DNA from: Methanocaldococcus jannaschii DSM 2661 | Lineage (GTDB): Archaea; AGJL01; Methanococci; Methanococcales; Methanocaldococcaceae | Assembly: GCF_000091665.1 (NCBI RefSeq) | Contig: NC_000909.1 | Span: 325,539 to 353,579, forward strand | Direction: 5' to 3' | Length of the DNA stretch: 28,041 nt | In this document: piece by piece, positions 399 through 27,304 of the stretch | Layout of the letters: every line of letters starts with the position of its first letter | Numbering within the stretch: the first letter of the stretch is position 1 | Notes under the pieces: model-generated | The model's database searches: none | Seen by the model: only the letters and a program-made list of their open reading frames with translations | What the model was told of the DNA's origin: nothing | Translations under genes and position numbers: made by a program

Positions 399-866
399 TT
401 ACTCATAAGCTTCTGTTTCCTGTTTTTCCGTGTTTTCTTCTTTTACTTCTTCAATGTTTGCCATCATCCCAGCAACATTTATAGGTGGGAGTATAACCGG
501 AGGAATATTAGCGTTCGCCGTAATAGTTGAAATCAAAGCCCTAACATAAGGGAATAATATTGCAACAGAATTAATCTCTGCAAATTGTCTAACCTTATCA
601 ATCGCTTCCTCAATAACTTCAAAGAAACCCCATACTTCAACAGACAAATAAACTGGACTTTTAGCAAAATCCTTTTTCTCCCCAGCTGTTATTTTAATTA
701 TCGTTATAAATTTATTTGGCTCATTTTTATTGTATCTTATCTCTGTATCAATATTTACATTCAACCTTATCTTTTCATCTTTTTCAGGGACTTCATTTAG
801 TATAAATTCAATATGCTTAACAATATAATTGGAAAACTTTAAAGCACACTTTGGTGGAGCTTCCAT
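399..866 (-). CDS. SecB-like chaperone (155 aa)
   Basis: Same length as E. coli SecB and alignable by eye. AILFPYVRALISTITANANIPPVILPPINV matches SecB [30 protein letters not shown], and both have an acidic C-terminal tail. Last gene of a tight three-gene operon (2-nt gap to the upstream gene). Confidence 0.8.
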   Translation of the reverse strand: MEAPPKCALKFSNYIVKHIEFILNEVPEKDEKIRLNVNIDTEIRYNKNEPNKFITIIKITAGEKKDFAKSPVYLSVEVWGFFEVIEEAIDKVRQFAEINSVAILFPYVRALISTITANANIPPVILPPINVAGMMANIEEVKEENTEKQETEAYE

Positions 867-868
867 TT

Positions 869-1255
869 TTATGCCACCTCATAATTATTACAAATATGTA
901 AACTATCCTGCTGAAGGGTAATAATATAACTTGATTCTTCACCAACTTTTATATCCTCTTTAAATTTATATCCCTTCCTAAATTTACAATACATTTTATT
1001 ATCAGCATTTATTTCCTTTAAATTAATCTTAATAACAATCTGGTTGTGGGTGTTAACATTACAAGTTTGGGACTTCATTATTATCTCTCGATATTTAGCA
1101 ATATCCTCTTCAGTTAAGACCTCATCTGTAGCTAATGGACCTGGCTTTATCTTCCCAAACCCACACTCAATTAAATCCCTCTCAAATTGTTCTAAATCAA
1201 TATTTTCAAAATGTTTGTAAATTCTTTTTAATTCTTTTAATAAATCAAATGTCAT
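869..1255 (-). CDS. Hypothetical 128-aa protein; candidate antitoxin/adaptor of the ART-SecB-like operon
   Basis: Sits between the ART-like gene (8-nt gap) and the SecB-like gene (2-nt gap). I recognise no family. N-terminal half looks helical, C-terminal half beta-rich. Confidence 0.6.
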   Translation of the reverse strand: MTFDLLKELKRIYKHFENIDLEQFERDLIECGFGKIKPGPLATDEVLTEEDIAKYREIIMKSQTCNVNTHNQIVIKINLKEINADNKMYCKFRKGYKFKEDIKVGEESSYIITLQQDSLHICNNYEVA

Positions 1256-1263
1256 AATCTCAC

Positions 1264-1908
1264 CTATATTCCTAAATCTTCTTTATAAATTTCAGTATAA
1301 ATTAAGAATTTATCTATTGTCTTCTCCAAATCATACCACTCCAACTTTTTTATAACACTTGGATTTTTTACACACACTTGAATCTCAGGCATAAATGTTA
1401 ATCTATGTGTTCTTTCTTTATATTTTTTATTTTTCTCACGATTTTCTATTTTTTGATATTTTTTTACGGGTATTGGAAACAAAGCTCTAACAATATCGAA
1501 TCTTTTATTATAACCCAGCTCCTTGTTCTTGAACATATAATTTATAACAACCCCTTCCGCACACATGTCTCCTCTGAGTTTATCTAACCTCAATTTCGTA
1601 GTGTTAATTAACTTATACATCATGTCAAATAGGAGTTTATGTTCAATCTTCGTTAAATCAAAAATCCTCGATTCCTCACATATAACTTCTGCTTTTATTA
1701 TTGCAAAATTTTTTAGTAATCTATTGCGGTTCTTCTCCTTATACCATATCCACTTAAACGCATGGAACTCCTCTTCATAAAAATAAATACCATCCCCAAG
1801 CCAGTGGTTATCTCCTTGGCTGGGTAGTATCTCCTTACTTTCCATTATTTTTTCTGCACTCTTTCTGTCGGTCCCATGATACAGTGTCATTCTAACATAC
1901 GACATCAT
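1264..1908 (-). CDS. PARP-like (H-Y-E class) ADP-ribosyltransferase domain protein; candidate toxin
   Basis: TLYHGTDRKSAEKIMESKEILPSQGDNHWLGDGIYFYEE aligns with the PARP catalytic core (LWHGSR...GKGIYFAD). A later PEIQVCVKNPSVI resembles the catalytic-Glu strand (NEYIVYD). The N-terminus also recalls DUF3990-type LYHG proteins. The true start may be Met7 (1890). Confidence 0.6.
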   Translation of the reverse strand: MMSYVRMTLYHGTDRKSAEKIMESKEILPSQGDNHWLGDGIYFYEEEFHAFKWIWYKEKNRNRLLKNFAIIKAEVICEESRIFDLTKIEHKLLFDMMYKLINTTKLRLDKLRGDMCAEGVVINYMFKNKELGYNKRFDIVRALFPIPVKKYQKIENREKNKKYKERTHRLTFMPEIQVCVKNPSVIKKLEWYDLEKTIDKFLIYTEIYKEDLGI

Positions 1909-2225: not shown

Positions 2226-2633
2226 TTATTCAGTCCACCAAGTTCCAACAGCAATATCATACTTAGCAACTTTTTTACCTTCCTCCCCTATAGGTCCAAT
2301 AATTTTAAATCTAAACTTTTGTCCAGGGTCAACGTCCCTATGGACGTCCATGAACTCATCAATTAAAACACCATCAGCATCATAAAATCTTGCCTTTATT
2401 TCTACAAATTTTAACCTTTTATTACCTACATTCTGAGCAACCCCTTCAACATACACAGTCCCATAATCTTTCCTAACTAAATGATGCTCTAATATCTGAA
2501 CTGGGCAAGTCTCAGTTTCTGCAGATGCGGTGCTTGAAGAATAGTCAGTTCCTCCTCCACCAGTGCAACCACATATAGCAACCACACCACATACTATACT
2601 GGCAAGTATCAAAAACACACCCAGCCTTTTCAT
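2226..2633 (-). CDS. Secreted/lipoprotein-like protein with an FxLYD-like beta domain
   Basis: N-terminal signal peptide with a Cys-containing lipobox-like motif (VVAICGCTGGGG). The C-terminal domain contains RFYDADG, reminiscent of the FxLYD domain family. Confidence 0.55.
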   Translation of the reverse strand: MKRLGVFLILASIVCGVVAICGCTGGGGTDYSSSTASAETETCPVQILEHHLVRKDYGTVYVEGVAQNVGNKRLKFVEIKARFYDADGVLIDEFMDVHRDVDPGQKFRFKIIGPIGEEGKKVAKYDIAVGTWWTE

Positions 2634-2781
2634 ACTCCCCCTCTTCGAATTTTACAATTATTCAAATGTTTCTATAATATTATATAATGATTACTATACG
2701 AGTTTAGAATATCGATGATTGTTAATGTTTATATTATTTAAATACCTACTTAGAAAAATAGAAAAATAAAAGCCCTAAGTT

Positions 2782-3012
2782 GTGGTAATTATGGATGAAA
2801 AACGGAAGCTTTTATTTGACAAAATAGCTAATGCTGGAATAGTTTTTGTTGGATACGAATTTTTATTTATGTTGTATGTCATCCTAAATACTGCATCTGG
2901 AATGATAACATTACAAACAGGTATTGTGCTATTTATAGGAGATGCCCTTGCAATACTAATAACAATCTGGCTATTATGTGCTGTTTTATATGACATCTAC
3001 AAAAAACTTTAA
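2782..3012 (+). CDS. Small membrane protein (two predicted TM helices)
   Basis: Two long hydrophobic segments, and an AT-rich TATA-like sequence ~50 nt upstream. The ATG at 2791 is an alternative start. Preferred over the overlapping antisense ORF 2775-2996. Confidence 0.45.
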   Translation: MVIMDEKRKLLFDKIANAGIVFVGYEFLFMLYVILNTASGMITLQTGIVLFIGDALAILITIWLLCAVLYDIYKKL

Positions 3013-3134
3013 TTAGTTTCTAAAGCTTTTTTACCACCCAATTTAAAATACCACAAATATAAAGCTAAAGATAACAAAACAATCAATCCCAAAGAAGCCA
3101 AACCCATAAGTGTAACTATAGTTTGATTATCCAT
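3009..3134 (-). CDS. Small membrane protein, 41 aa (MDNQTIVTLMGLASLGLIVLLSLALYLWYFKLGGKKALETN); paralog of the ORF at 1-115
   Basis: Hand translation. One TM helix plus the shared WYFKLGG(K/R) motif. Not in the ORF track because of its length. Confidence 0.45.
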   Translation of the reverse strand: MDNQTIVTLMGLASLGLIVLLSLALYLWYFKLGGKKALETN

Positions 3135-3239
3135 ACTCACCAACTCCTTTTTTCTAATTCTATAATATATCAACTATGAAATATAAGCTTTATCAATGTG
3201 TGAAGAGGTTAGTATATTAACGATTGTTGATATTTTTAA

Positions 3240-3610
3240 GGTAGTGTCCCGAGATGTGTCGGATTTAGAGATAAGGATAATTCTTTGAGATTTTACGAAA
3301 TCCTAAATAATTTATGTCCTATTTTCGGTTTAGACGTTTATTTATGAAATCGAATAATTTGGGATTATCCCTAAGGTATTCAAACTTAATTTTTCTTATT
3401 TTCTTGGTTTAGGGAATATAAACCGTTATCTAAATATATCGGTTTAAATGTCTCTAAACCGCATAAACTTAATAAATTATCCTTTTAAGTCCAGAGATGA
3501 GGACATTTTAAGCTCTTTTATAAATATGCCTCTAAACCAAAAATAAACCGTAATCCTATGAGTTTTGAGCCAAATAAGGCAAATATGTGTCCATCTCTAA
3601 ATACGATATT
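3240..3610. repeat. Non-coding region dense in GGTTTAGA / TCTAAACC-type iterons in both orientations; candidate replication origin of the element
   Basis: Plus-orientation copies at 3262-3271 (variant), 3327-3333, 3406-3412 and 3441-3447. Minus-orientation copies at 3418-3425, 3454-3460, 3532-3538, 3543-3550 and 3595-3604. Imperfect palindrome CGGTTTAAATGTCTCTAAACCG at 3440-3461. ATTTAGAGAT (3264-3273) is inverted at 3591-3603. Confidence 0.5.
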
Positions 3611-3637: not shown

Positions 3638-3961
3638 TTATGCAGTTGAATTTACAATTTTATAATTAATAACGATGTCTTGGCCTTCTCTAAGAGTATC
3701 GAAAGTTTCAATAAGATCTAATATTTCTAAAGCTCTTTTACCTCTTGGGGTTATTGAATAATATACTTTTCCAAATTTATAAGGAGATTCTCCTTCTCTT
3801 TTTTCAACGAAACCTTCATTAACTAAATCAGATAATATTGAGTCCAAAATTTTTGGATGTAAATTTAAAGTCTTCTGTAATTCACTAAAATACATATCTT
3901 TACTATTTAGTAATTTTAAAACATCCTTTACGTGTTTTTTTGCCAGTATTTTGAGTATCAT
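3638..3961 (-). CDS. Winged helix-turn-helix transcriptional regulator (ArsR/PadR-like)
   Basis: 107 aa with a typical wHTH pattern (FSELQKTLNLHPKILDSILSDLVNEGFVEKRE...YYSITPRGKRAL). Transcribed divergently from the MCM operon. Confidence 0.65.
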   Translation of the reverse strand: MILKILAKKHVKDVLKLLNSKDMYFSELQKTLNLHPKILDSILSDLVNEGFVEKREGESPYKFGKVYYSITPRGKRALEILDLIETFDTLREGQDIVINYKIVNSTA

Positions 3962-4018
3962 AATATGACCTGCCTCTTTTTGTTTTTATTGTAATTTTTT
4001 ACAACTACTTTTATTTAT

Positions 4019-4118
4019 GTGATTATTCACCAAAGCGTGATGAATCACCAAAAAATATATATATCAGTTTAATTATATTACTCACCAAATAGTGATAAAT
4101 TACTACATAGTGATAATA
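4019..4118. promoter_or_regulatory. Divergent promoter/operator region with repeated GTGA-N4-TCAC(CAAA) palindromes
   Basis: GTGATTATTCAC (4019-4030), GTGATGAATCAC (4037-4048), TCACCAAATAGTGA (4082-4095) and a further AGTGATAA at 4109-4116. Three copies are followed by CCAAA. Confidence 0.55.
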
Positions 4119-4309
4119 TGAAAATCAGAAAGAAAACATGGAGATTGCCAAAAGATGCAACAATATCATTCAAAGGAGTTGTTAAACCAATAGGAAACTC
4201 TGGAATGATCTTAATACCTAAAGATTACGTTGGATGCAAAGTTTTAGTTACAATACTTGATGAACTCGGAAATGAAGAATTTGAGATTGTAGAAACTGAG
4301 AAATCATAA
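4118..4309 (+). CDS. Small AbrB/SpoVT-like DNA-binding protein (resembles the archaeal DUF2080 'transposon-encoded' family)
   Basis: 63 aa. [22 protein letters not shown] fits the swapped-hairpin AbrB-type motif. First gene of the plus-strand operon. Confidence 0.5.
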
Positions 4310-4323
4310 ATTAGGGGATAAAC

Positions 4324-6603
4324 ATGGTTTATGATAACATAAAAAGAGAAATTATAGGCATGTTAAAAAGAATGCCTAACAAACAAGCAGATTGGGATAA
4401 TGATTTATTACCTACTTTAAAGGCAATGTTTAACCCAAAATCAGTTTCAAACGCTAAATCCCAATTAATCTCTGAAGGTGTTATATCTCAAGAAATTGTT
4501 GATGGAAAGAAAATTATAACTCTCATTAAGGACCCTTATGAGCTTCAAGCTCCCAACGTATTTGACGAGGAAATGTTCTTGGCATACTATACTGATAAAT
4601 TAAAGGAGTATTTTAAACACAAGTTATCAACTGAAGGACCAGAGTGGGATATTTTTGACGTGAAAGAATTTATAATGCACTTCCCTGAATCTGGAGATTT
4701 GAATGATAAGTTAATAGAACACCCTTATGAAGTTAGGAAATCGATAACAAATGTATATATTGAAGCTTATGAAGAATTATTCAACGAAACACCTAACGTA
4801 GAATTTATCCACATTAGAAATCCTATTGATTGTAGAATTTCCTTATCTGAATTATCATCTGCCCATAAAGGAAAATTAGTAGAGTTTAGAGCAATGATTC
4901 TCCAAGCAACGAAACTTAAACTAAGGTATGCTAAGGGATTCTATTACTGTCCAAAGTGCGGAGCTACAAAGACATTGGATTTAGGATTTTGGGATAAACC
5001 TAAAGAAGTTGGAAAGTCATTAACATGTCCTGCTGATGGCTGTGATTGTAAAGGACTAATATTTGATGAAGATTTATCTGGCAAAGTTGATTTTCAGGAG
5101 ATTAAAGTTCAAACACCATTACAGGAGTCAATATATGCAAATAAACATTCTACAACTGTCTTCTATGAATTTAACAAACCAAAGAAAGCGGTATATTCTG
5201 GGTATGTGAAGATTGTTGGAGTTCCAATTGTTAAAGAAAATAAAAACGGGAGTGTTGGAGAATTATACATTCATGCTTTTTACATTGAAAAGGATGATGA
5301 AGATATTGAAGAAATAGCTAAAAACCTCAATGAAAAAGATTTAGAGCTTATTAATAGAATTGCTAAGGATAAGAACGTTATTCAAAAGCTTTCTGACTAT
5401 GCTTTTAGGGAAGTTACTGGATATGATATGATAAAAAGAGCTGTTTTATTACAGTTGGTTAGTAGTGGGACTAATATTGACATGAGAACGTCCATCCATA
5501 TTTTGATGATTTCCGACCCTGGGGTTGGAAAATCAACATTGATGGAGTCATTAATTCAGAAGTTTCCATTTGTTAAGAAAGTTTATGCTGTTACTTCATC
5601 AGGTCCTGGATTGGTCGGGTCTGTAGTCAGGGAGAAGGCAGAGTTTGGAGATAGTTGGGTATTAAAAGCTGGGGTTTTAACTGAGGCTGATGGGGGAGTT
5701 GTTTGTATTGACGAATTTTCAAGGAATAAAGAGGTATATGATTATCTCTTGGGAGTTATGGAACAGCAGAAGATTGAGATTAACAAGGCTGGAGTTATTG
5801 ATGCAGTATTGCCAGCAAGGGTTGCTATTTTAGCAGCATGTAATCCAAGGTTTGGAAGGTTTAATCCTGATTTAACCGTATGGGAGCAGATAAACTTGCC
5901 TAAGGAGTTATTGGATAGGTTTGATTTGATTTTTGTGATTAAAGATAAGATTGATAAAAAGAAAGATGAGGATATAGCAGATTTCTCTATTGATAATTAT
6001 AATTCAAAAGTTAGAGAGAGAAAAGGAAAATCTTCGGGTAAAAAGTTTGTAATAAATGGTGTTGAGTTGAATGATGAGTTGTTGCTGAAGTATGTTCTTT
6101 ATGCAAGACAAATAGAGCCAGAAATATCAGATGAAGCTCGTAAGATTATAAAAGAGTATTATGTTTCTGTAAGAAAAATGAGCGAAGCAAAAGGAACTTT
6201 TGGAATATCTGCAAGACAGTTAGGGTCTATAATCAGATTAGCAGTTGCTCATGCAAAGTTAAGATTGTCGGAAGTTGTTAAAGCGGTTGATGCAGAAGAG
6301 GCTATAAGGTTAGTTGATACCTGCTTAAAACAAATCGCCTACGACCCTGAGAGTGGTTCAATAGACATTGACAAAATAGCTGGAACTCCGAAATCTAAGA
6401 GGGATAAGGTTGAGAAGGTTCTGAATATTATTAAGGAAATTTCTAACTCAAGAGATGACGGCTTAGCTCCTGAAGAAGAGATATATGAAAGGGCTGAAAG
6501 GGCGGGTTTATCTGAGAAGGAAGTTGAGGATGCTATTAATTATCTGAAACGGGTTGGAGACATTTATTCTCCAAAGTCGGGTTATTGGCAACTTATGTCT
6601 TGA
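4324..6603 (+). CDS. mcm: MCM-family replicative helicase, divergent element-borne copy
   Basis: Cys cluster CPKCG...CPADGCDC, Walker A DPGVGKST, Walker B CIDEF, sensor-1 AACNP, and SARQLGSIIRL (MCM arginine-finger/sensor-2 region). Confidence 0.92.
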   Translation: MVYDNIKREIIGMLKRMPNKQADWDNDLLPTLKAMFNPKSVSNAKSQLISEGVISQEIVDGKKIITLIKDPYELQAPNVFDEEMFLAYYTDKLKEYFKHKLSTEGPEWDIFDVKEFIMHFPESGDLNDKLIEHPYEVRKSITNVYIEAYEELFNETPNVEFIHIRNPIDCRISLSELSSAHKGKLVEFRAMILQATKLKLRYAKGFYYCPKCGATKTLDLGFWDKPKEVGKSLTCPADGCDCKGLIFDEDLSGKVDFQEIKVQTPLQESIYANKHSTTVFYEFNKPKKAVYSGYVKIVGVPIVKENKNGSVGELYIHAFYIEKDDEDIEEIAKNLNEKDLELINRIAKDKNVIQKLSDYAFREVTGYDMIKRAVLLQLVSSGTNIDMRTSIHILMISDPGVGKSTLMESLIQKFPFVKKVYAVTSSGPGLVGSVVREKAEFGDSWVLKAGVLTEADGGVVCIDEFSRNKEVYDYLLGVMEQQKIEINKAGVIDAVLPARVAILAACNPRFGRFNPDLTVWEQINLPKELLDRFDLIFVIKDKIDKKKDEDIADFSIDNYNSKVRERKGKSSGKKFVINGVELNDELLLKYVLYARQIEPEISDEARKIIKEYYVSVRKMSEAKGTFGISARQLGSIIRLAVAHAKLRLSEVVKAVDAEEAIRLVDTCLKQIAYDPESGSIDIDKIAGTPKSKRDKVEKVLNIIKEISNSRDDGLAPEEEIYERAERAGLSEKEVEDAINYLKRVGDIYSPKSGYWQLMS

Positions 6604-6612
6604 TAATCAGAG

Positions 6613-6957
6613 GTGGGGAGTATGATTGAAATTAATTTCTCTCACGATTATTTCAAATTAAGAGAACAGAGATTTACAACAATTAGAAGCAAGCATTATC
6701 TGAAAAATAAGGGTTTGAGAGTTGGAGATGTTGTAAAAATTAAACATCCAAGTGGAGAGTTTCCTGCTAAAATCGTTGGAGTTGAGGTTAAAAGAATTTG
6801 TGATATTCCTTTAGAAATATTAAAGAAAGATGCAGAATTCGAAGGTTTTAACATAAAAACACATCAAGATTTTGTAGATTTGCTTAATAGTTTTATCCCT
6901 TACAAGTCTAATAAATTGACGACTGAAAAAGCCATTATTTACTTAGAAAGAGTGTGA
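6613..6957 (+). CDS. ASCH/PUA-like domain protein
   Basis: 114 aa. The N-terminal YFKLREQRFTTIRS...VGDVVKI pattern resembles ASCH/DUF3850-type domains. 9-nt gap after mcm. Confidence 0.45.
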   Translation: MGSMIEINFSHDYFKLREQRFTTIRSKHYLKNKGLRVGDVVKIKHPSGEFPAKIVGVEVKRICDIPLEILKKDAEFEGFNIKTHQDFVDLLNSFIPYKSNKLTTEKAIIYLERV

Positions 6958-6961
6958 TAGC

Positions 6962-7492
6962 ATGGCTAAGGCAATCATTGACATAGAAACTACTGGACTC
7001 AACCCTATGGAGCACCGTATAGTTGCCATTGGTGTAAAACTTGGGGATAGGGATATTATTCTGATGGATGAGTCAGAGTATTATTTGTTGGTTAATTTTT
7101 GGGATACGGTGGAAAAAGAAGGTATTGAGAAAATAATCGGCTTTAATATTGACTTTGATTGGCAGTTCCTAAAATTGAGAAGCTTATATCATAGGTTGAA
7201 AATAAAGCATTTCAGAAAATACCAAGGTAGAGTAGATTTAAGGCAGATATTGAATGGGAGTGGTGGGCAGTATAGGAAGGGAACAAAGTTAGTGGATTAC
7301 TGTAGGTTTTTGGGAATTGACGTTCCAGAAGATGACGCTAATGGTAGTGAAATTCCAGAGCTTTGGGAGAAGTTTGAAGAGGAAGGGGATGAAGAAGCTA
7401 AACGCAAAATCTGTGAGCATTTAAAGAGGGATTTAGAGAGAACTTGGGAGTTGTATAAAATATTAGTTGATTGTGGTTTGATTGAGGAATAA
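6962..7492 (+). CDS. DEDDh 3'-5' exonuclease (RNase H-like / DnaQ-like fold)
   Basis: ExoI DIETTG, ExoII NIDFDWQFL, ExoIII H-x4-D (CEHLKRDLE). Confidence 0.75.
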   Translation: MAKAIIDIETTGLNPMEHRIVAIGVKLGDRDIILMDESEYYLLVNFWDTVEKEGIEKIIGFNIDFDWQFLKLRSLYHRLKIKHFRKYQGRVDLRQILNGSGGQYRKGTKLVDYCRFLGIDVPEDDANGSEIPELWEKFEEEGDEEAKRKICEHLKRDLERTWELYKILVDCGLIEE

Positions 7493-7770
7493 TGCCTTTG
7501 GTGGGCTTTATGAAAGAGAAAAAGAGGGCAACATTTTATCTTTATAAAAACATTGACGGTAGGAAACTTAGGTATCTTTTGCATAAGTTGGAAAATGTTG
7601 AAAATGTGGATATAGATACTCTAAGAAGAGCAATTGAAGCTGAAAAGAAATATAAGAGGTCTATAACTCTCACAGAGGAAGAGGAGGTTATAATACAGAG
7701 GTTAGGTAAAAGTGCTAATTTGTTGTTGAACTGCGAGTTGGTGAAGTTGGATGAGGGAGAAAGAGCTTAA
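7492..7770 (+). CDS. Hypothetical protein (92 aa), translationally coupled (TAATG) to the exonuclease gene
   Basis: ORF in operon context immediately upstream of, and overlapping, the integrase gene. An excisionase-like role is only a guess. Confidence 0.5.
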   Translation: MPLVGFMKEKKRATFYLYKNIDGRKLRYLLHKLENVENVDIDTLRRAIEAEKKYKRSITLTEEEEVIIQRLGKSANLLLNCELVKLDEGERA

Positions 7771-8743
7771 ACATATTGAAAATCTTTTACTTTTGAAGGT
7801 TAAGAAAGAGAAAATTGAAGAGACAGATAAAATTAAAGAATATTTAAAAAGGTTTGAAGATGAAAGGAGATTTGATGGGATAAAAGAGAGCACTATAAAG
7901 AGTGATTTAGACAGGTTGAGAGTGTTTTTAGATTATTGCATTAATTACCTTGGAAAAAATCCAGAAGAGTTAAAAACAAGTGATTTCGTTAAATTTTTTA
8001 ATTATTTAGATACGGTTAGAAAAGTATCTAAAAGTTCGCAGAGGAAGTATTTTTTATTATTAAAAGTGTTTTATAGAGTTTTAAGAATGTATAATGTTAT
8101 TCAGGAGTTCGTTGAAGAGAGTAAGGATAGGAAGAGGTTCGCGAGAATTGAAATCCAACATTATGATGCTGTTGATGCTGAAATGTTGAATATGATTTTA
8201 AAGAAGATAATTGAAAGTGGGAGTAGGACCAGGATAAGGGATGCGTTAATAATCAGGTTACTTTGGGACACTGGTTGTAGGGTTTCTGAGGTTCTTAATT
8301 TGAAATACAAGGATTGTGATTTAGACAATGGCATATTTAAGATTCGAAATACCAAAACTCATGAGGAGAGGACTGTTGTTTGTTCATCGGATACTTTAGA
8401 GTTGCTTAGGAATTATGTTCAGTTTAATGTAAGGCAAGGTTCAGATGACTATTTGTTCCAGAATTCTCAGGGTGGGAGGGTTAGAAAAGAGTGGATTAGT
8501 GAAGTGTTTAGAAAGGCAGTGAATGAATTGAAAGAGGAGGGTAAAATCCCTAAAAATAGGCGTATTGTTATTCATAGTATAAGACACGGAAGGGCGGTAG
8601 ATTTATTGAATAAGGGAGTGCCCATCGACATCGTAAAGGAATACTTAGGACATAAGTCGATGAACACTACTTTGATTTATGCTCATTCTAAGGAGAGGGC
8701 TGAGAGTTTGGAGTTTATTAAAAAGTTGTTGAGAATCCAGTAA
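7751..8743 (+). CDS. int: Tyrosine recombinase / integrase (XerC/D-like)
   Basis: Catalytic signature: DTGCRVSE (Arg), HSIRHGRA (His-x-x-Arg), LGHKS, and LIYAH (nucleophilic Tyr). Confidence 0.92.
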   Translation: MREKELKHIENLLLLKVKKEKIEETDKIKEYLKRFEDERRFDGIKESTIKSDLDRLRVFLDYCINYLGKNPEELKTSDFVKFFNYLDTVRKVSKSSQRKYFLLLKVFYRVLRMYNVIQEFVEESKDRKRFARIEIQHYDAVDAEMLNMILKKIIESGSRTRIRDALIIRLLWDTGCRVSEVLNLKYKDCDLDNGIFKIRNTKTHEERTVVCSSDTLELLRNYVQFNVRQGSDDYLFQNSQGGRVRKEWISEVFRKAVNELKEEGKIPKNRRIVIHSIRHGRAVDLLNKGVPIDIVKEYLGHKSMNTTLIYAHSKERAESLEFIKKLLRIQ

Positions 8744-8892: not shown

Positions 8893-8948
8893 CTTGAGAT
8901 CCAGTGGGGCTTTGCCCCGCCTGGGTTCAAATCCCAGCCCCTGCGCCA
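8893..8948 (+). tRNA. Orphan 3' half of a class II tRNA (Ser-like, possible UGA anticodon), probably an att-site remnant rather than a functional tRNA
   Basis: Long variable arm GGGGC-TTT-GCCCC (8906-8918), T arm CTGGG-TTCAAAT-CCCAG (8921-8937), acceptor 3' strand CCCCTGC, discriminator G, and encoded CCA (8946-8948). No complementary GCAGGGG acceptor, D arm or 5' anticodon stem lies upstream. Confidence 0.65.
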
Positions 8949-9027
8949 ATGATTTAAAATTCTATTTCTATTTTTATTTTGTTTTTAATTATTAAAATTG
9001 AATAATTTAAATATATAGATTAATATT

Positions 9028-14378: not shown

Positions 14379-15143
14379 ATGAGGGAGAGTATGAGAATTG
14401 AGTTAGAGTTACAGACAGACAACTTCACAGTAATTCCTTATAATCATCAGTATTATTTGGCATCAGCCATATACAATAAAATTCACTCTGCAAATCCTGC
14501 CTATGCTAAAAGATTACATAATTATCAGAAGTTTAAGTTCTTTACTTTTTCTTTATTGCAGATTAGAAAGAGGGTTATTAGAAAGGAAGGGATTGAAACT
14601 ATAGATGGGAAGGCATATCTCTATATATCCTCACCAAACAATGAGTTTATTGAGAATTTTGTTGCTGGACTCTTAGAGGATGGAAAGTTGAGAGTAGGAA
14701 ATGTTGAATTCTTTGTAAGAAAGGCTAAAATTCTACCAATTCCAAAGAAATTCAATATATTAAAAACCATATCTCCAATTTACTTAAAGACGATGATTGA
14801 GACAGAAGATGGTTTAAAAACTTATGATTTATTACCAAACAATTCTAAATTTTATGAAAACTTAAAGAATAATCTAAAAAAGAAATATGAAGCATTCTAT
14901 AATGAAAAATGTGACATGAACTTTGAATTTGAAGTCTTAAAATTTAGACCTAAAAGGATGAGAATAAAAAATGATATTTATTGTAGGTGTTCTGAAATGG
15001 TGTTTAAGGTCTGGGGGGACTACGATTTAATAAAATTTGGTTATGAGTGTGGTTTTGGAGAGAAGAATAGTATGGGTTTTGGAATGGTTGTAAATGTTGA
15101 AGATAAAAATCAAAAAAATAAAAAACTCAAAACAAAAATTTAA
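14379..15143 (+). CDS. cas6: Cas6 CRISPR RNA endoribonuclease
   Basis: C-terminal glycine-rich loop GFGEKNSMGFGMV; size and cas context fit. Confidence 0.85.
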   Translation: MRESMRIELELQTDNFTVIPYNHQYYLASAIYNKIHSANPAYAKRLHNYQKFKFFTFSLLQIRKRVIRKEGIETIDGKAYLYISSPNNEFIENFVAGLLEDGKLRVGNVEFFVRKAKILPIPKKFNILKTISPIYLKTMIETEDGLKTYDLLPNNSKFYENLKNNLKKKYEAFYNEKCDMNFEFEVLKFRPKRMRIKNDIYCRCSEMVFKVWGDYDLIKFGYECGFGEKNSMGFGMVVNVEDKNQKNKKLKTKI

Positions 15144-15506
15144 TTGTGGCTAATAATTGTTAATATCTCCTATTTACTTTTTCATTATTGCATAAAAACG
15201 TGTTAAACAAAATCATTTATTAATCATACTACATAACTCATAACAACCTATTTATACACTTCTATCTTTTAACAACTTTTCAATCTTTACTTTATTTTCA
15301 TATACTTTATATATAAGCTTTACATATAAATGTTAGTTTATTTATTTAAATCTAGATTATATCGATACGTTTATATATAGGTTATTTCAAAATATCTATT
15401 ATTTAAAATTAAATTTGTTAAAAAGTCATATCTAAACTGGTGAAGATATGCTCACTATACCTCTTGATAATTTTATAAAACAAAGAATACTTTTTTTACC
15501 ATTTAT

Positions 15507-18214
<2,708 letters not shown>

Positions 18215-18317
18215 AATTTTATGTTACTTCGAAGATACGTCAAAAGTGAGCTAAGAGGCATTGCTTCTGCAAAGAAGCAATGCATCCTGGGTATCCCAAT
18301 AGGGCGAAGCCCTATGG
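18215..18317 (+). other. GC-rich ~100-nt insert with two strong hairpins between cas4 and cas1; candidate structured ncRNA or MITE-like insertion
   Basis: Hairpin 1 at 18258-18283 is GCATTGCTTC-TGCAAA-GAAGCAATGC (10-bp perfect stem). Hairpin 2 at 18299-18315 is ATAGGGC-GAA-GCCCTAT. Local GC is clearly above the AT-rich background. Confidence 0.45.
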
Positions 18318-18367
18318 TATCAGAAAATCTGCAAAATTGTGCTTATTATGAGTTATGTTTTATTTAA
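18318..18367 (+). pseudogene. Decayed duplicate of the cas4 3' end
   Basis: TATCAGAAAATCTGCAAAATTGTGCTTATTATGAGTTATGTTTTATTTAA parallels cas4 18164-18214. It still encodes [10 protein letters not shown]-stop in one frame, but a 1-nt deletion breaks the link to YQKICK. Confidence 0.7.
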
Positions 18368-19971
<1,604 letters not shown>

Positions 19972-19987
19972 AAATACTTCTTATGTA

Positions 19988-20013
19988 TATATTTTACTTC
20001 GAAGTAATATATA
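19988..20013. promoter_or_regulatory. 26-bp near-perfect palindrome centred on TACTTCGAAGTA in the csa3/csa5 divergent promoter; candidate Csa3 operator
   Basis: TATATTTTACTTC (19988-20000) versus GAAGTAATATATA (20001-20013): one mismatch between arms, with TATA-like sequence on both flanks. Additional TACTTC copies at 19975-19980 and 20025-20030. Confidence 0.55.
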
Positions 20014-20079
20014 AATACTTTGTATACTTCTACGAAATTCCTTAGTAAAGTTTATATTTTCCCATATTAATATTATGTA

Positions 20080-20436
20080 GTGTCAATAGATGAGGTGATA
20101 AAGTTGGAGAATTGGATGAAAAATATTGGAAGATATCTTAGCTACCTTATAAGCGATAAGTTTGAGGAATATGCTTATGACATCATTGATGGAGTAGCTA
20201 AAGCAAGAAATGCAAATGAACTTTTAGAAGCGTTATATAAAGGATTAAGATTGTCCCCAAAACTAAAAAAGAAAGGAAATATTGAAGTCCCATCTCCAGA
20301 GGACGTAAAAAAGTTGGAAGAAACTTTGAGAGAAATCGGAGATAATGAAAAGGAAGTTAGAAAAATTGGATTAAGCATGGCACTCTGGGCTTTTGCAGAC
20401 TGGGAAAAAGACCACAGAAAAAGAGGTGATCAGTAA
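20080..20436 (+). CDS. csa5: Csa5 (Cas11-type small subunit, type I-A); GTG start
   Basis: 118-aa helical protein at the position of the I-A small subunit, immediately upstream of and overlapping (TAATG) cas7. The call is mostly positional. Confidence 0.6.
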   Translation: MSIDEVIKLENWMKNIGRYLSYLISDKFEEYAYDIIDGVAKARNANELLEALYKGLRLSPKLKKKGNIEVPSPEDVKKLEETLREIGDNEKEVRKIGLSMALWAFADWEKDHRKRGDQ

Positions 20437-21398
20437 TGTTCTTGAGAATCTCAGGAAGAGTTAGGTTGAATTCCCATTCTTTAAATGCCCAAGGTGGGGG
20501 AGGAACAAATTATGTGGAGATAACAAAAGCTAAGGTTAGCATAAAGAATGATGATAGATGGGAAATCCTTGAAGTGCCAGCAATTTCTGGAAATATGGTT
20601 AAGCATTGGCATTTTGTAAGCTTTGTTGATTTCTTTAGAGAGACAGATTACAAAGATAATTTAACAGAAAGGGCTTTGAGATATAATGGGGCAAGGTTTG
20701 GACAGGAAACTAAAGCCAAAAAAGCTGATGGTTCTGAAGTTGAATTGAAGGATGAAAGTGAAATCATTAAAAACTTTGCTGATGCAGATGTTCATGGATT
20801 TCTAGCTCCAAAAACTGGAGTTAGAAGAGTTTCTCTTGTAAAAACCTCATTTATACTCCCAACAGAAGATTTCATAAAAGAAGTAGATGAAAGGCTCGTT
20901 TATGCTGTAAAGCATAATAGAGTTGATATTGATGAAAAAGGAGCAATAAAATCTGGAGAAGAACAAACTGCCCAAATGTTATTTAATAGAGAGTATGCAA
21001 CTGGGCTGTATGGATTTGAAATCATATTAGATTTGGGATTTGTTGGAGTTCCTCAATCATCTCCATCAAATCCAGTTATTGAAGATGATGAAAGAAAAGC
21101 AAGAATAGTATCGGCATTAAAAGCTTTGATTCCAATGCTAAGTGGTTATATTGGAGCAAATTTAGCCAGGTCATTCCCAGTATTTAAACTTGAAGAAATG
21201 ATAGCGGTTGTTAGTGAAAAACCAATACCTGCCTTAGTTCATGGATTCTATGAGGATTATGTAGAAGTAAGCAAAAACGTTGTAGAAAATGCAAAGAAAC
21301 TTGGATTTGAGATTGAGGATTTCGGATACAATGTAGATTTTGGTGAGAGCGTTTCATCAGTTGAAGAGCTAATCTCAAAAATAATAGAGAAATTATAA
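20436..21398 (+). CDS. cas7: Cas7 (Csa2) backbone subunit, type I-A
   Basis: N-terminal GRVRLNSHSLNAQGGGGTNY and ISGNMVKHWH are typical of the Csa2/Cas7 family. Confidence 0.88.
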   Translation: MFLRISGRVRLNSHSLNAQGGGGTNYVEITKAKVSIKNDDRWEILEVPAISGNMVKHWHFVSFVDFFRETDYKDNLTERALRYNGARFGQETKAKKADGSEVELKDESEIIKNFADADVHGFLAPKTGVRRVSLVKTSFILPTEDFIKEVDERLVYAVKHNRVDIDEKGAIKSGEEQTAQMLFNREYATGLYGFEIILDLGFVGVPQSSPSNPVIEDDERKARIVSALKALIPMLSGYIGANLARSFPVFKLEEMIAVVSEKPIPALVHGFYEDYVEVSKNVVENAKKLGFEIEDFGYNVDFGESVSSVEELISKIIEKL

Positions 21399-21407
21399 AT
21401 TGAGGGG

Positions 21408-22145
21408 TTGATTATGGAGGCTTTAGTAGCTCTCCTCCGATTTCCATTCTATTCTTTTGGAAAACAGTCTTATCAAGTTAGACAATCTTTGCTATTACCA
21501 TCTCCATCAGCATTAAAAGGGGCATTAGCTAAGGGAATTATATTGCTTGGTGGAAAAAAAGGAAAGAGTTTAGATGAAATTGCTAAAAAAACTGTTGAAG
21601 AATTGGAAAATAAGCTCATCTATGTCGGAGCAAAGCCATACAAAAGTAGTATCATAAAAACCCCAATTCTACTAAAGAGACTTAGAAACTTAGAAGATCA
21701 AAAAAATCCAGAAAAAAGTGACGCAATGAGAAGAGAATATGTATTTGCAAGGGAGATTTTAGCTATTTATGTTTTTAGGAGAAAGTTGAGTGAAGAAGAA
21801 AAAGATCTAATGCTTAAGGCAGTTTATTTAATTGACCAGCTCGGAGATACTGAGTGTGTGGGAAATGTGATTAAAACTGAATGGGTTGAAGTAAAAGAAG
21901 AAAAAGCTCCTCTAAAAACCTATGTGAAGTTTAAAAAAGTATCAAAAATGAGCATAAATGGAGGTATTATTGAAAATATGCTTGAAACTCCAAATTTTGG
22001 AAATAAAGTAAAAGAAGAGCCGTATTTACTACCACTTATTGAAAAACGTTATAGAAGAAGCTCATATTACGTTGAATCAGATAGAATTTTTGACGGAAAT
22101 TACAAAATTATTGCCTTTGATGAGGTGATTGGGTTATGGATATAA
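21408..22145 (+). CDS. cas5: Cas5 (type I-A); likely start at the ATG at 21414 after RBS GAGGGG
   Basis: N-terminal Cas5 pattern LRFPFYSF...[17 protein letters not shown]. Confidence 0.8.
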
Positions 22146-23980
22146 TTAATTTTTTTAAACAAATTACAGATCATGAGCCTTATGATTATCAAATTAGGGC
22201 ATGGGAAAAGATTAATAAAATTATGGAACTTGGGGGGAGGGTAGTAATAGAGATACCAACTGCTGGTGGAAAAACAGAAGCAGCAATTATTCCCTACTTA
22301 TATCAATTCATCTCCAACGATTGGAAAGTTCCAAGATTAATCTATGTTCTTCCGACACGTTCACTTGTTGAAAAACAGGTAGAAAGAATCAGGAATTATA
22401 TTAAAAAAATTCTTGAAATAAAAGGATATTCAAAGGATAAAGTTGAGGAATTAGCTAAAAAAATAGTTCAAGTTGAGTATGGATTAGAGGAAACCCATGC
22501 TTTCTTAGGGTTTGTTGTTTTAACTACTTGGGATACATTTCTTTATGGGTTAGCAGCCCATAGGACTGTTGGAGATAGATTTACCTTCCCATGTGGGGCA
22601 ATTGCTCAAAGTTTAGTAGTTTTTGATGAAATACAGATGTATCAGGATGAAAGCCTTTACATGCCGAGATTGATTGGATTGGTAGTTAAAAGATTGGTAG
22701 AAGCTAACGTTCCATTAGTCTTTATGACAGCGACACTTCCAACAGAGCTTAAAAAAATACTTGGCATACACGATGAAGAACCAATAACCGTTAATCCAGA
22801 AGATACGAAAAAACCAGAGAGAGGAGAAGTAGTTGTTGAATTTAAGGAAAAATTAAGTGACGAAGAACTTAGTAATGAAATCAAAAAAGCAATAAATGAA
22901 GGAAAAAAGGTGTTGATAATAAAAAACACTGTAAACAGTGCCATAGAGGTTTATGAAAAAGTAAAGCAACTTGGAAATTCATTACTCCTACACTCAAGAT
23001 TTACAGTAGAAGATAGAGCAGAAAAAGAGAAAGACATTGATAAAGCCGAGATAATTGTTGCTACACAGGTGGTTGAAGCAGGTTTGGATTTGACAAATGT
23101 AGGGCTTGTAATAACTGATTTAGCTCCATTAGATGCATTAATACAAAGAATAGGAAGATGTGCAAGAAGAAAAGGAGAAAGAGGCAAAGTAATAGTTGTA
23201 TTGCCAAATTTTAATGAGAAAATAAATGAAGACCATAGGGAAAAAGTAATTTTAGGATTTAAAAATATCCCATTTGAAAATGCCTATGTAACACTGGTAA
23301 ATAACAAAGATTATGGGAGAGTTATTGAATTAACTATTGAAACAATTGAAGAGAAAAAAGGAAAGAGCAAAATCGTCCCTAAAAAGTTTTACATCGGTGA
23401 TTTGGGAAACAAGACAATAAGAAAGCTTATTGAAAATAACAAAATTCTGAAGAAAAAAGATCTATACTTTATTCCATATTCAACACAGCCCTATGATCCA
23501 TTAATTATGATAAAAAGCTTTGATGAAGTTGAAAGTGTTAGTGAATATTTATACGACATAATTAAAGCTCGTGAGGCTTTAGATAGGGTTTATAAGGAAT
23601 ATTATGAAAACAACATAGTCCCTAAAGACTATTACTCTGCCTACATATATTTCAGAGAGTTAAAACTCTTTTCTACACCTCCAGAATATGAACTCAAGGC
23701 AAGACCAGAAATGTTTGCAATATTGTATCCATTAGAAAATGCTGAAGAAAAAGTAAAAAATAAAGAAATAATTGAGTTTAATCCAAAATATGTTATTCGT
23801 GTGAGCTATAACTGGCTTAAAAACAAGTGGGAGAAGTTTGATAAAAAATTTGAGTTAATTAAAGAATACGATGAGAAAGGTTGGATATGTAGTCTTAAAA
23901 AAGCTGGAAAACTACAACCTTACAAAATCTACATAATTGATGACAAATATTACTCTAAAGAAACTGGGATAATAATTTAA
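22136..23980 (+). CDS. cas3': Cas3' helicase (stand-alone SF2 helicase)
   Basis: Walker A PTAGGKTE, a DEIQ box, and motif [13 protein letters not shown]. No HD domain. Confidence 0.9.
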
Positions 23981-23986
23981 CAAACT

Positions 23987-24721
23987 TTGATTTTGGGTGA
24001 GATTATGGAAGTTTTAGCCTTTAAAAATCAATCCCTTATTGATCATGTTAACGATATGGTCAAATATTGGGAGAGAATAAAATATAGATACTTAAAAACT
24101 ATAAAGAGAGCTTTAGAGGCTTTAAACATAAAGTTAGATATCGAAAAAGTTGATGAATTTATGAAGATTTTGATAAAACTTCACGATATTGGTAAAGCTT
24201 CAAAGATATATCAAAGAGCTATCATTAACGATCAAGAAAAACTCATGGGCTTTAGACATGAGCTTGTTAGTGCTTACTATACTTATCACATTCTCCTTAA
24301 AAAATTTGGTGATAAAAACCTTGCCTTCATTGGAGCTTTAACTGTAATGCTCCACCATGAGCCGATTATTATGGGTCAAATAAGAAATCTTAAAAAGAAA
24401 GAATTGACAGCTGAAGTCGTGCTTGATAAGCTAAAAAAGTTTGATGGAATGATTGAAGATTTTGAAGATCTTATTAAAAAGTTAATTGGATATTCAATAG
24501 GGGATATAATTAAAAATGATTCTAATAAGGACGATATTATCAGATTTGTTATCGAAATGAGTGTTAGAGCAAGACATACACCAAATTCAGAGAAGCTTAG
24601 ATTTATTGTTGGAACTCTGCTTTTACCTTTAGTCATGTGTGATTATAAAGGGGCTGAGAGTAGAGAAGGAAAAGCTCCAAAGTTTGCAGAAGTTTTGGAG
24701 GTTGAGAGTTATGTTATTTGA
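23987..24721 (+). CDS. cas3'': Cas3'' HD nuclease (stand-alone); likely start at the ATG at 24005
   Basis: Full HD motif set: LIDHV, LHDIGK, FRHE, MLHHEP, and a C-terminal MCDYKG. Confidence 0.9.
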   Translation: MILGEIMEVLAFKNQSLIDHVNDMVKYWERIKYRYLKTIKRALEALNIKLDIEKVDEFMKILIKLHDIGKASKIYQRAIINDQEKLMGFRHELVSAYYTYHILLKKFGDKNLAFIGALTVMLHHEPIIMGQIRNLKKKELTAEVVLDKLKKFDGMIEDFEDLIKKLIGYSIGDIIKNDSNKDDIIRFVIEMSVRARHTPNSEKLRFIVGTLLLPLVMCDYKGAESREGKAPKFAEVLEVESYVI

Positions 24722-25766
24722 GACACCAGGATATAATGAGATACTTGATTTATATATAGCTTATGGAGTAGTTGAGTGTTTAGTTAGAGAAGGCGTTGAA
24801 AATCTCAGATTTTTCCCAATTGGGAATAAATATTGTATTGTAGTTGAAGAACCTACTAATGTAAATATTAAAAATAGAATTGAAAAGGGAATGTTAAATG
24901 CATTGGAGGATATGCTTTCCCTGCATAAAGCTATTGGTAAGTATATTTCCACAAAGGAGGATATCAAAATTATAAGTGATGTTGATTTTAGTGCAGGTGC
25001 AAATATTAATAACGTTTATTGGGATGGAATTCCAAAAACTCTTGAAAAGATAAAAGAAAATATTAAAAAAGGAAAATTATCTACAAAGAGTAAAAATACA
25101 GTGCCACTTACTTTAATGCCAGCTGCTGGTAAATATATGCCAAAAATTTATGGTGTAAAAGGTGGAAATCCAATAAAAATAGATGATTCCAACTATGCCC
25201 TTGCCTGGATTGGTTTCCATTATTATGCTCCATACATAAATATATCAGACAATAGAGCAACATATATTCATATTTATGCCATAAAACCTCTTGAAGAATT
25301 AGGACTTATTGAAATCCTTGCTTTAAAAGATTTAAAAAAGAAAATTAACAACTATCAACTTGGAAAATATAAATTTTTTGTAAATAAAAAATTGGCACTG
25401 CTATATCATTTAACCCATACTGAATCAATAAGTGCCTTGGAAATAGTTACAAAAAAGAATTTTTCAGTTGTTAGTTACACTCTCGAGAATGTTGATAACA
25501 ATCAAGCAATACGATCTTTTGGAGAGTATGATTTATCAAAACTTATGGACTTTTTATGGTATTTAAAAGCTACTGATTTCTATAATACAATCCAGTTTGT
25601 AGATAACATACTTAGAGGTGATTTAGAAGTTTCCCTAACCTTCATAGATGGTATTCTTTATGATGACTTAGATGCAGTATATTCAGCTATAAGAAAGTTA
25701 AAAAGTGTAAGAATATCTCCTCTAATTATTCAGAGTATTTTGGAATGGTTTGGAAATTTTTATTAA
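24711..25766 (+). CDS. cas8a: Cas8a-type large subunit (Csa4/Cas8a2-like), type I-A
   Basis: Last gene of the interference operon, in large-subunit position. The start is chosen at the ATG at 24711 (RBS GGAGG upstream, 11-nt overlap with cas3''). The track ORF begins at 24639 inside cas3''. Confidence 0.65.
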   Translation: MLFETPGYNEILDLYIAYGVVECLVREGVENLRFFPIGNKYCIVVEEPTNVNIKNRIEKGMLNALEDMLSLHKAIGKYISTKEDIKIISDVDFSAGANINNVYWDGIPKTLEKIKENIKKGKLSTKSKNTVPLTLMPAAGKYMPKIYGVKGGNPIKIDDSNYALAWIGFHYYAPYINISDNRATYIHIYAIKPLEELGLIEILALKDLKKKINNYQLGKYKFFVNKKLALLYHLTHTESISALEIVTKKNFSVVSYTLENVDNNQAIRSFGEYDLSKLMDFLWYLKATDFYNTIQFVDNILRGDLEVSLTFIDGILYDDLDAVYSAIRKLKSVRISPLIIQSILEWFGNFY

Positions 25767-26124: not shown

Positions 26125-26930
26125 GTTTCCATTCCCTTCTCCCTATTCATCTGTTGTTTCCATTCCCTGAGGGATCTGATTTTACGGAGTTGAAGCTCAT
26201 AAAATTGTCCAAGATGTCGATTTATTTCCATTCCCCGAGGGATCTGATTTTACATTCAATAAAAAAAAATAAGATAAAAAATCTTATTTAAGATTTCCAT
26301 TCCCTGAGGGATCTGATTTTACGTCATCTTCTATTTGTTGTATGTATTTTAATACGGTATTTCCATTCCCCGAGGGATCTGATTTTACCATATTGCTCTT
26401 CCCCATCTGGTTCATCAGTGTAAGCATTATTTCCATTCCCCGAGGGATCTGATTTTACTATTTTTCCAATTGTTCAGGGGAAAGTCCTCCCTTCATTTCC
26501 ATTCCCCGAGGGATCTGATTTTACGTGGATTACCAGCTGATATGGGATTAGGTAGTGGATTATTTCCATTCCCCGAGGGATCTGATTTTACGATGAGAGA
26601 GTTATTTATGTAAGTGTTAAAGTTGTAGAAATTTCCATTCCCCGAGGGATCTGATTTTACATAATAATAGAGATAATACAGTTCCCAAAATGAATAAATT
26701 TCCATTCCCCGAGGGATCTGATTTTACTTAACTCAACTTTTATTGAAGTTATTTTTATGTTGATTTGTATTTCCATTCCCCGAGGGATCTGATTTTACAC
26801 AATAGAGGTAAAAGAGGTTATAGGGTAATATTTGATTTCCATTCCCCGAGGGATCTGATTTTACGATTTAATCTGAGTATTTTGTACATTTTGAGGAGCA
26901 ATTTCCATTCCCCGAGGGATCTGATTTTAC
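26125..26930 (-). CRISPR. CRISPR array: 12 intact 30-nt repeats, 11 spacers (36-41 nt) and a 12-nt repeat remnant at the cas2-proximal end
   Basis: Plus-strand repeat is ATTTCCATTCCCCGAGGGATCTGATTTTAC. Repeats start at 26156, 26224, 26293, 26359, 26429, 26495, 26562, 26631, 26698, 26769, 26835 and 26901. Variant repeats (26156, 26293) and the remnant (26125-26136) are at the left end. The minus-strand reading ends in ...ATGGAAAT, like the canonical archaeal ATTGAAA(G/C) 5'-handle source. Confidence 0.97.
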
Positions 26931-27304
26931 AGGGGGACTTTTTCAATATATTATACCTTAACTCTCCTGATATTTAAGCTTTTCTATACCATAATTTCTT
27001 AAGGATAAATAACCGTTTTGCAATATAAACCTTATGGTAGTTAAATTCTTATTTCTTTAATAAAAATAATCATTTTTATCACTTTAAATTTGAAAGTGTT
27101 TGTTATTTATTGGGGAAATCTTACTCCTAAATGTATTTAGCCCTTACTCCCAAAAACCTAAATAATTTAATACATCCAAATTAATAAAATGTTTAAAATA
27201 AGCCACCCTTAGAAATCAAATTTAAACTTCTATTAAATAAGTTAAGAAAAGAGTTAAAGAAATTAATTCCAAATATAAAATCTTTTAACGTGATACTATT
27301 CAAA
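26931..27304 (-). promoter_or_regulatory. CRISPR leader (AT-rich, ~370 bp)
   Basis: Non-coding AT-rich block next to the end of the array with perfectly conserved repeats, opposite the degenerate end. Confidence 0.7.

Follow-up and report, generated by a model that had tools for sequence, protein, structure and literature searches.

The archaeal SecB homologue MJ0357 as the probable chaperone of a provirus-borne CmdTAC-type toxin-antitoxin-chaperone module in Methanocaldococcus jannaschii

The closest described relatives of the locus considered here are toxin-antitoxin-chaperone (TAC) systems of bacteria. PD-T4-9, an anti-phage system of Escherichia coli since renamed CmdTAC, consists of the ADP-ribosyltransferase (ART) toxin CmdT, the antitoxin CmdA and the SecB-like chaperone CmdC (PMC9519451, PMC11618068). 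CmdTAC has been described from E. coli ECOR22 (RCP66309-11 in the draft assembly QOXH01000008) and O112ab:H26 (Vassallo et al. 2022, 2024; Mets et al. 2024), and both characterised systems are prophage-borne (bioRxiv 10.1101/2024.02.24.581848). Its hallmarks are the ADP-ribosylation of adenine at N6 within GA in single-stranded RNA, an abortive infection set off by a capsid protein, and loss of the antitoxin through a protease. Homologues have been described “in diverse bacteria”, without mention of archaea (PMC11618068), and CmdTAC, PD-T4-9 and SecB go unmentioned in the main text of a survey from 2026 that covers 7747 archaeal genomes. The same toxin-antitoxin-chaperone logic is found in the TAC of Mycobacterium tuberculosis (HigB1-HigA1-SecB^TA, Rv1955-1957), whose chaperone-addiction (ChAD) peptide has an LSSYR core with an essential Y114. 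Here we describe a three-gene operon of the hyperthermophilic archaeon Methanocaldococcus jannaschii DSM 2661 in which the third gene, MJ0357, encodes a SecB homologue. The operon was analysed within a stretch of 28,041 nucleotides (contig NC_000909.1, positions 325,539 to 353,579; hereafter the window). We propose, with a probability of about 0.72, that MJ0357 is the chaperone of a CmdTAC (PD-T4-9)-type TAC module carried by a provirus of ~30 kb, working by analogy with the E. coli and M. tuberculosis systems.

The three genes lie on the minus strand in the order toxin, antitoxin and chaperone (1264-1908, 869-1255 and 399-866). They are separated by 8 and 2 nt, and each is preceded by a ribosome-binding-site-like GGTG motif. 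The first, MJ0359 by gene order, encodes a CmdT-like, ADP-ribosyltransferase-like toxin of 214 aa (213 from the second ATG). The second, MJ0358 by gene order, encodes a putative antitoxin of 128 aa with a CmdA-like architecture, and its stop codon lies 2 nt before the ATG of the CmdC-like chaperone gene, which encodes 155 aa from ATG to stop. Searches with the PADLOC models of the E. coli system matched MJ0357 to PD-T4-9_C (E 2.3e-23, 80.8 bits, residues 7-146 on profile positions 4-132 of 135) and MJ0359 to PD-T4-9_A (E 3e-12, residues 10-186 on positions 7-168 of 187), a second PD-T4-9_A model also matching the toxin (E 1.1e-7). A toxin homologue, a second open reading frame (ORF) directly downstream and a PD-T4-9_C match, the three features by which PD-T4-9 is recognised, are all present at the locus. 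In addition to gene order and matching models, the operon shares with E. coli CmdTAC an H-Y-Q signature at equivalent toxin positions, an antitoxin with a conserved N-terminus and a long C-terminal extension, and a location in an integrated viral element. An earlier inspection of the letters alone, referred to below as the sequence-only reading, had placed a 155-aa SecB-like protein at 399-866 and suggested that it was the dedicated chaperone of a partner protein. The ORF was recovered with exactly these coordinates on the minus strand, and its position as third gene of a PD-T4-9/CmdTAC-type operon would supply the partner.

MJ0357 belongs to the SecB family, and its likeness to SecB is far beyond chance. 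Pfam SecB (PF02556) matched with 43.3 bits, above the gathering cut-off of 26 (E 4.5e-11), over residues 33-135 of 155 and profile positions 33-134 of 141, and a profile of MJ0357 and 24 homologues matched Haemophilus influenzae SecB with E 5.8e-11. The alignment with the E. coli and H. influenzae sequences in the PDB contains the conserved core, which reads ILFPYVRALISTITANANIPPVILPPIN in MJ0357; the stretch aligned to the E. coli core, AILFPYVRALISTITANANIPPVILPPINV, is followed by an acidic tail, as the sequence-only reading had stated. The length is identical to that of E. coli SecB chain 5jtl_A (155 aa). An AlphaFold2 model of the monomer, built with 25 homologues as input (predicted local distance difference test, pLDDT, 77.6), has four beta-strands (residues 9-23, 37-45, 52-61 and 72-84), a long helix (89-118) and a C-terminal helix (131-152), as in the SecB fold. 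The top 19 PDB matches of this model in Foldseek were all SecB (1fx3, 1qyn, 1ozb, 5jtl) or 5mtw, the SecB-like TAC chaperone of M. tuberculosis, with target-normalised template-modelling (TM) scores of 0.57-0.80; the structural alignment with 5mtw gave TM 0.6-0.7. By sequence, the MJ0357 profile does not reach M. tuberculosis Rv1957 at E <= 0.01. The protein also matches phrog_21664, a phage protein family of unknown function (E 2.3e-17). The top phmmer match in the PDB, 8h2i (‘P22’, 1343 aa), was dismissed as a repetitive protein with summed sub-threshold matches to residues 110-141.

The toxin MJ0359 matches the phage family of unknown function phrog_14664 (E 1.4e-19) and, weakly, Pfam Tox-ART-HYD1. 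Across 15 toxin homologues the invariant residues are H11, H35-W-L-G-x-G-x-Y42-F, R81, Q177, C179 and N182; H11, Y42 and Q177 fit the HY-[E,D,Q] triad published for CmdT, in which Y41 is catalytic (PMC11618068). The AlphaFold2 model of MJ0359 (pLDDT 89) found as its best PDB matches exclusively ART-fold proteins, mostly toxins: VPA0770, NatT, MbcT, RhsP2, exotoxin A, diphtheria toxin, Tpt1 and PARP4. The toxin is ART-like, in contrast to the HigB RNase of the M. tuberculosis TAC, and the antitoxin is likewise unrelated to HigA. The toxin family is large: an exhaustive search of 1.84 billion cluster representatives yielded 1904 at E <= 0.001. Ten short ones among them gave either ~30 bits or no match against PD-T4-9_A. 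All 120 matches listed for a profile of the aligned toxins were Bacillota-like or unnamed proteins. Searches of 50,697 phage records by tblastn gave no match for the chaperone and, for the toxin, just four partial ones, which lie in Streptococcus satellite phages and a faecal phage. Neither MJ0358 nor MJ0359 is mentioned in the literature searched.

MJ0358 had no match in Pfam, NCBIfam, PADLOC or PHROG, and its relatives were found through their genomic position. ORFs between toxin and chaperone homologues, termed middle genes, were gathered from 20 further loci, and the N-terminal motif LLKELKRIYKHFENIDLEQFERDLIECGFGKIKP of MJ0358 aligns with all of them, bacterial and archaeal. A hidden Markov model built only from 16 bacterial middle genes identified MJ0358 with E 8.1e-13, as the sole match in the six-frame translation of the window, and also matched the three other archaeal middle genes. 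The conserved N-terminal part (approximately residues 1-40; 1136-1255, minus strand), presumably helical and toxin-binding, is followed by a variable C-terminal extension of ~85 residues; this corresponds to the short conserved N-terminus and long C-terminal extension described for CmdA (PMC11618068). Two elements of the extension deserve attention. The first is SSYIITLQ (residues 108-115; 911-934, minus strand), which has S-S-Y in common with the M. tuberculosis LSSYR core and which, by this analogy, we propose as a putative chaperone-addiction element. The pattern S.Y.[IF].[IL][QN] is present in four of four archaeal antitoxins, 20-27 residues from the C-terminus, and occurred once in 38,211 background residues. 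The second is the C-terminal tripeptide EVA (872-880, minus strand), a candidate ssrA-like degron. An -AA end is found in 12 of 17 bacterial middle genes and a -VA end in 3, both resembling ssrA tags, and the -EVA end of MJ0358 is identical in two Lachnospiraceae-like ones. The other three archaeal antitoxins end in -LLS, -LCS and -YSS; serine ends in three of four, a small sample, would fit a host without ClpX. The Bacillota antitoxins, which share the N-terminal motif, differ from the archaeal ones in their length of 72-96 aa, in lacking S.Y.[IF].[IL][QN] and in having hosts with ClpXP.

The arrangement of toxin, small ORF and SecB homologue is conserved well beyond M. jannaschii. In 27 of 32 fetched loci with a toxin homologue, a SecB homologue lies 130-340 bp downstream on the same strand. 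These loci comprise about 20 from bacteria, mostly Bacillota (e.g. Clostridium perfringens), and three further archaeal ones, and include three IMG/VR viral contigs. The Bacillota operons (Clostridium perfringens, Paenibacillus, Tissierellaceae) are the closest relatives outside archaea, with chaperone and toxin each ~41% identical to those of M. jannaschii; they are uncharacterised and annotated as ‘hypothetical protein’ and ‘protein-export chaperone SecB’. Among the archaeal loci, L001 is an element from a vent metagenome that carries an archaeal histone gene and has the same order from a PadR-like regulator to the TAC genes. L002 is an MJECL-plasmid-like contig on which the operon is flanked by homologues of the M. 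jannaschii plasmid genes MJECL32 and MJECL33. In L017, a Methanothermococcus metagenome-assembled genome (chaperone P0005), the operon stands alone between housekeeping genes, and no integrase or viral genes were found near the three-gene module. In L017 (positions 2057-2145 and 4001-5408), the neighbours of the module are CdhD, DUF1847, a diaminopimelate-type decarboxylase and an F420 ligase, with a tRNA-Sec gene 1.9 kb away.

In M. jannaschii itself, the operon is part of a provirus. To its right lies a replication and integration module (3638-8743; Pfam matches, with genes as called in matching public contigs) in the order PadR-like regulator, DUF2080-like ORF, MCM helicase, RNase H-like exonuclease, DUF2540 and tyrosine integrase, beyond which the host core genes for topoisomerase VI A, FtsZ, Spt5 and ribosomal protein L11 follow. 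Beyond the left edge of the window, public contigs of ~30.4 kb with sequence identical to it encode a tail-fibre-like protein as well as large proteins lacking annotation, and contig L035 (1700-2130) joins the integrase end to a Mu-F-like head-morphogenesis gene, a circular junction that hints at an excised form or at assembly across an attachment repeat. The 100% identity between the window and L035 stops at position 8957, at the end of a GC-rich stretch. The right attachment site (8893-8957, plus strand, start approximate) is the 3' part of a tRNA gene with a long variable arm (Ser-like) and ends in GGGTTCAAATCCCAGCCCCTGCGCCA; the fragment aligns with the tRNA 3' part from the anticodon loop on, from an anticodon-loop-like CTTGAGA to a terminal CCA. 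No complete tRNA gene was found in the window, and Rfam gave only a 12.7-bit T-arm-like match in the attachment region (8920-8937). A search for direct attachment repeats inside the window found none, as the window does not extend to the left end of the provirus. Base composition does not mark off the element (GC ~0.28-0.36 in 1-kb windows across the window). Nevertheless, the stop of identity at the tRNA fragment, together with the flanking viral genes, places the operon inside a head-tailed provirus of ~30 kb integrated at a tRNA gene, in agreement with the integrated element of the sequence-only reading.

Gene order, the homologies of toxin, chaperone and middle gene, the catalytic signature and the provirus context are direct observations; for the mechanism we draw on E. 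coli CmdTAC and M. tuberculosis TAC. By this analogy, MJ0357 most likely stabilises the antitoxin and triggers an abortive-infection or addiction module. The N-terminal domain of the antitoxin would hold the ADP-ribosyltransferase-like toxin inactive, and its C-terminal extension, with SSYIITLQ and -EVA, would be prone to aggregation and degradation unless bound to the presumably tetrameric SecB-like chaperone. The chaperone would be titrated by a competing client, most probably a structural protein that an infecting virus has just produced, and the antitoxin would then be destroyed. ClpXP is not to be expected in M. jannaschii, so the protease would be the PAN-20S proteasome or Lon. The freed toxin would then ADP-ribosylate a nucleic-acid target, probably mRNA, and translation would stop, resulting in aborted infection or in the killing of cells that lose the element. 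The host PAN-20S proteasome degrades ssrA-tagged GFP in vitro (PMC7376118). A further proposal, which we put forward tentatively and rate somewhat below even odds, is that the module provides working archaeal TAC immunity without ClpXP, in which the antitoxin is turned over by the PAN-proteasome or Lon at ~85 °C and the SecB-like protein acts as a sensor of structural proteins of archaeal tailed viruses.

Several observations weigh against the assignment of MJ0357 to a CmdTAC-type module. We know of no virus of M. jannaschii able to serve as the trigger. The likeness of the archaeal proteins to E. coli CmdT and CmdC was measured through the PADLOC models. The structural matches of MJ0359 are weak (TM 0.3-0.4, best E 2e-4); the published comparison of CmdT with exotoxin A is likewise loose, with a root-mean-square deviation of 6.9 Å (PMC11618068). 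PD-T4-9_B matched neither MJ0358, which is longer than its E. coli counterpart, nor ten middle genes of Bacillota at E <= 1; the authors of CmdTAC do not require the second ORF to resemble CmdA and allow its sequence to vary (PMC9519451). The ChAD-like pattern was defined post hoc from four sequences. With ClpXP not expected in this archaeal hyperthermophilic host, the degradation step must differ from that of CmdA, which is degraded by ClpXP in E. coli. Finally, MJ0357 may have general chaperone activity, given the E. coli-SecB-like properties reported by Ha et al. 2004, as cited in PMC4361572.

Alternatively, the module could serve mainly as an addiction system that stabilises its carrier provirus or plasmid by post-segregational killing, loss of the element ending the resupply of antitoxin and chaperone and leaving the toxin to kill the cell. 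Addiction is the classic role of toxin-antitoxin systems on mobile elements, and the module does reside on such elements, namely the provirus, the plasmid-like L002 and the related element L001. However, in L017 the operon among housekeeping genes has nothing there to stabilise, and the two characterised homologous systems are abortive-infection defences (PMC11618068; bioRxiv 10.1101/2024.02.24.581848). We regard addiction as unlikely to be the main function, although addiction and defence roles are compatible with each other.

A different reading, suggested by the 2004 study, takes MJ0357 for a general or secretion-related archaeal chaperone, the counterpart of export SecB. The protein indeed has the family, fold and length of the export SecB of E. 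coli and H. influenzae (1qyn, 1fx3, 1ozb), together with their ILFPY.R...P..L.P.N core and acidic C-terminal tail, and its physicochemical properties are described as highly similar to those of E. coli SecB (Ha et al. 2004, as cited in PMC4361572). Yet it resides in a TAC operon and a provirus and not in a housekeeping locus, its gene being packed translationally behind toxin and antitoxin. Against six NCBIfam export-SecB equivalogs MJ0357 scored 19-48 bits, below every cut-off (103-277); the highest score was 48.1 bits (cut-off 143), and TIGR00809 gave 33.6 bits (cut-off 102.8). Where the aligned E. coli SecB has D20, E24, L75 and E77, which we take to be its SecA contacts, MJ0357 carries H, I, Y and S. 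Moreover, PD-T4-9_C, the CmdC model, outscores Pfam SecB on this protein (80.8 against 43.3 bits), and SecA is absent from archaea (PMC4361572). Having failed every export-SecB test run on its sequence, MJ0357 is unlikely in the extreme to be an export-type chaperone, which supports the claim of the sequence-only reading that it is not a canonical one.

The phylogenetic spread of the family agrees with this conclusion. A rough neighbour-joining tree, drawn without support values, groups the archaeal chaperones in a single clade among the TAC chaperones of Bacillota, to which MJ0357 is ~41% identical, as against 17-19% to bacterial export SecB (E. coli 17%). Archaeal relatives are few, a handful of Methanococcales-like sequences in eight clusters at 60-90% identity, of which one bears the name Methanothermococcus. 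When one genome per species was scanned, the toxin turned up in 22 bacterial genomes, mostly of Bacillota, and in a single archaeal one. With this patchy archaeal occurrence, MJ0357 is not a member of a broadly conserved archaeal housekeeping family. Many entries of the TAC-chaperone subfamily (P0005, P0034, P0044, P0061, P0064 and P0120, including Clostridium and Methanothermococcus) are labelled ‘protein-export chaperone SecB’ or ‘preprotein translocase subunit SecB’. For the subfamily of MJ0357, such labels in Methanococcales and many Bacillota are probably a systematic mis-annotation.

Comparison of the archaeal loci points to an exchange of parts of the module. At the DNA level, the window and L001 share 84-100% identity over the promoter and the initial 60-160 nt of the toxin gene, and 83-98% over the chaperone gene with its downstream repeats. 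Between these two regions, window positions 867-1731 and L001 positions 2512-3280, which cover most of the toxin and the whole antitoxin, show background similarity only, and the right-hand breakpoint of the swapped cassette coincides exactly with the antitoxin/chaperone junction. Judging from this pattern, the C-terminal part of the toxin and the antitoxin have been exchanged between the provirus and L001. In neighbour-joining sketches without support values, the chaperones of M. jannaschii and L001 pair with each other, as do those of L002 and L017, whereas the toxins pair M. jannaschii with L002 and L001 with L017, the antitoxins following the toxins. These discordant pairings imply that each of two toxin-antitoxin types occurs with each of two chaperone types, which makes four combinations in four loci. 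TAC modularity has been shown experimentally with an engineered CmdTA-HigC hybrid (bioRxiv 10.1101/2024.02.24.581848); the reassortment seen in the four archaeal sequences is natural evidence for it. The ChAD-like motif common to the archaeal antitoxins would explain why an exchange of chaperones is tolerated. One could also read the operon as a bacterial module that was acquired horizontally and survives as a relic unable to work in an archaeal hyperthermophile, since its closest non-archaeal relatives are in Bacillota and the protease used in E. coli is not expected in this host. Such inactivity is highly improbable, considering the three intact ORFs with invariant catalytic residues and a GGTG motif before each gene, the retention of the three-gene structure in four diverged archaeal versions, and the exchange of intact cassettes, which implies continuing selection.

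The regions flanking the operon contain potential regulatory features. A 22-nt inverted repeat (1962-2013; 91% complementary, 8-nt spacer) overlies TATA-like boxes ~55-105 nt upstream of the toxin ATG and is a candidate promoter and autoregulatory operator; the adjacent stretch 2023-2082 is 100% identical in L001. Just downstream of the chaperone stop codon lie three AATACA-rich tandem repeats of 32 nt (272-376), a region 83-93% identical in L001, which possibly serve as a terminator, as binding sites or as iterons. Between the TAC operon and the PadR-like gene, an ORF of 135 aa (2226-2633, minus strand) has a signal-peptide-like N-terminus followed by cysteines, resembling a lipoprotein; it had no family match and no counterpart in L001. 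Within the provirus, the 759-aa MCM helicase (4324-6603, plus strand; MJ0363 by gene order) is an example of the extra, element-borne MCM copies known in Methanococcales. A second defence locus is located ~5 kb beyond the provirus end: a type I-A-like CRISPR-Cas cluster (14379-25766) with Cas6, Cas3 helicase, Cas4, Cas1, Csa3, Csa2/Cas7 and Cas5, followed by a repeat array (~26562-26931) with units such as ATTTCCATTCCCCGAGGGATCTGATTTTAC.

The SecB homology of MJ0357 has been in print since 2004, so that the bare finding of a SecB-like protein in a methanogen is not new: PMC4361572 names Mj0357, cites Ha et al. 2004 for the homology and gives 18% identity to E. coli SecB, and as of 2014 UniProtKB held one archaeal SecB (PMC4361572). 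The sequence-only reading was right about the SecB identity and missed both this publication and the partner genes immediately upstream. The likeness to SecB has been known since 2004 and CmdTAC as a family since 2022-2024; new are the archaeal hyperthermophilic TAC context, the reinterpretation of MJ0357 and the cassette reassortment.

The finding extends the CmdTAC/TAC anti-phage class to Archaea and to a hyperthermophile, the literature searched describing CmdTAC only in bacteria. It also settles an oddity of 20 years, since the sole reported archaeal SecB, in a host without SecA, would be a TAC chaperone and not an export factor. With small, thermostable proteins and a host PAN-20S proteasome that has been reconstituted in vitro, the system is tractable, and chaperone addiction with a different protease becomes approachable. 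If TAC immunity without ClpXP does operate here, the two-by-two reassortment would be natural evidence that sensor and warhead are exchangeable cassettes joined by a short ChAD motif, a principle for which engineered hybrids in E. coli are so far the only demonstration.

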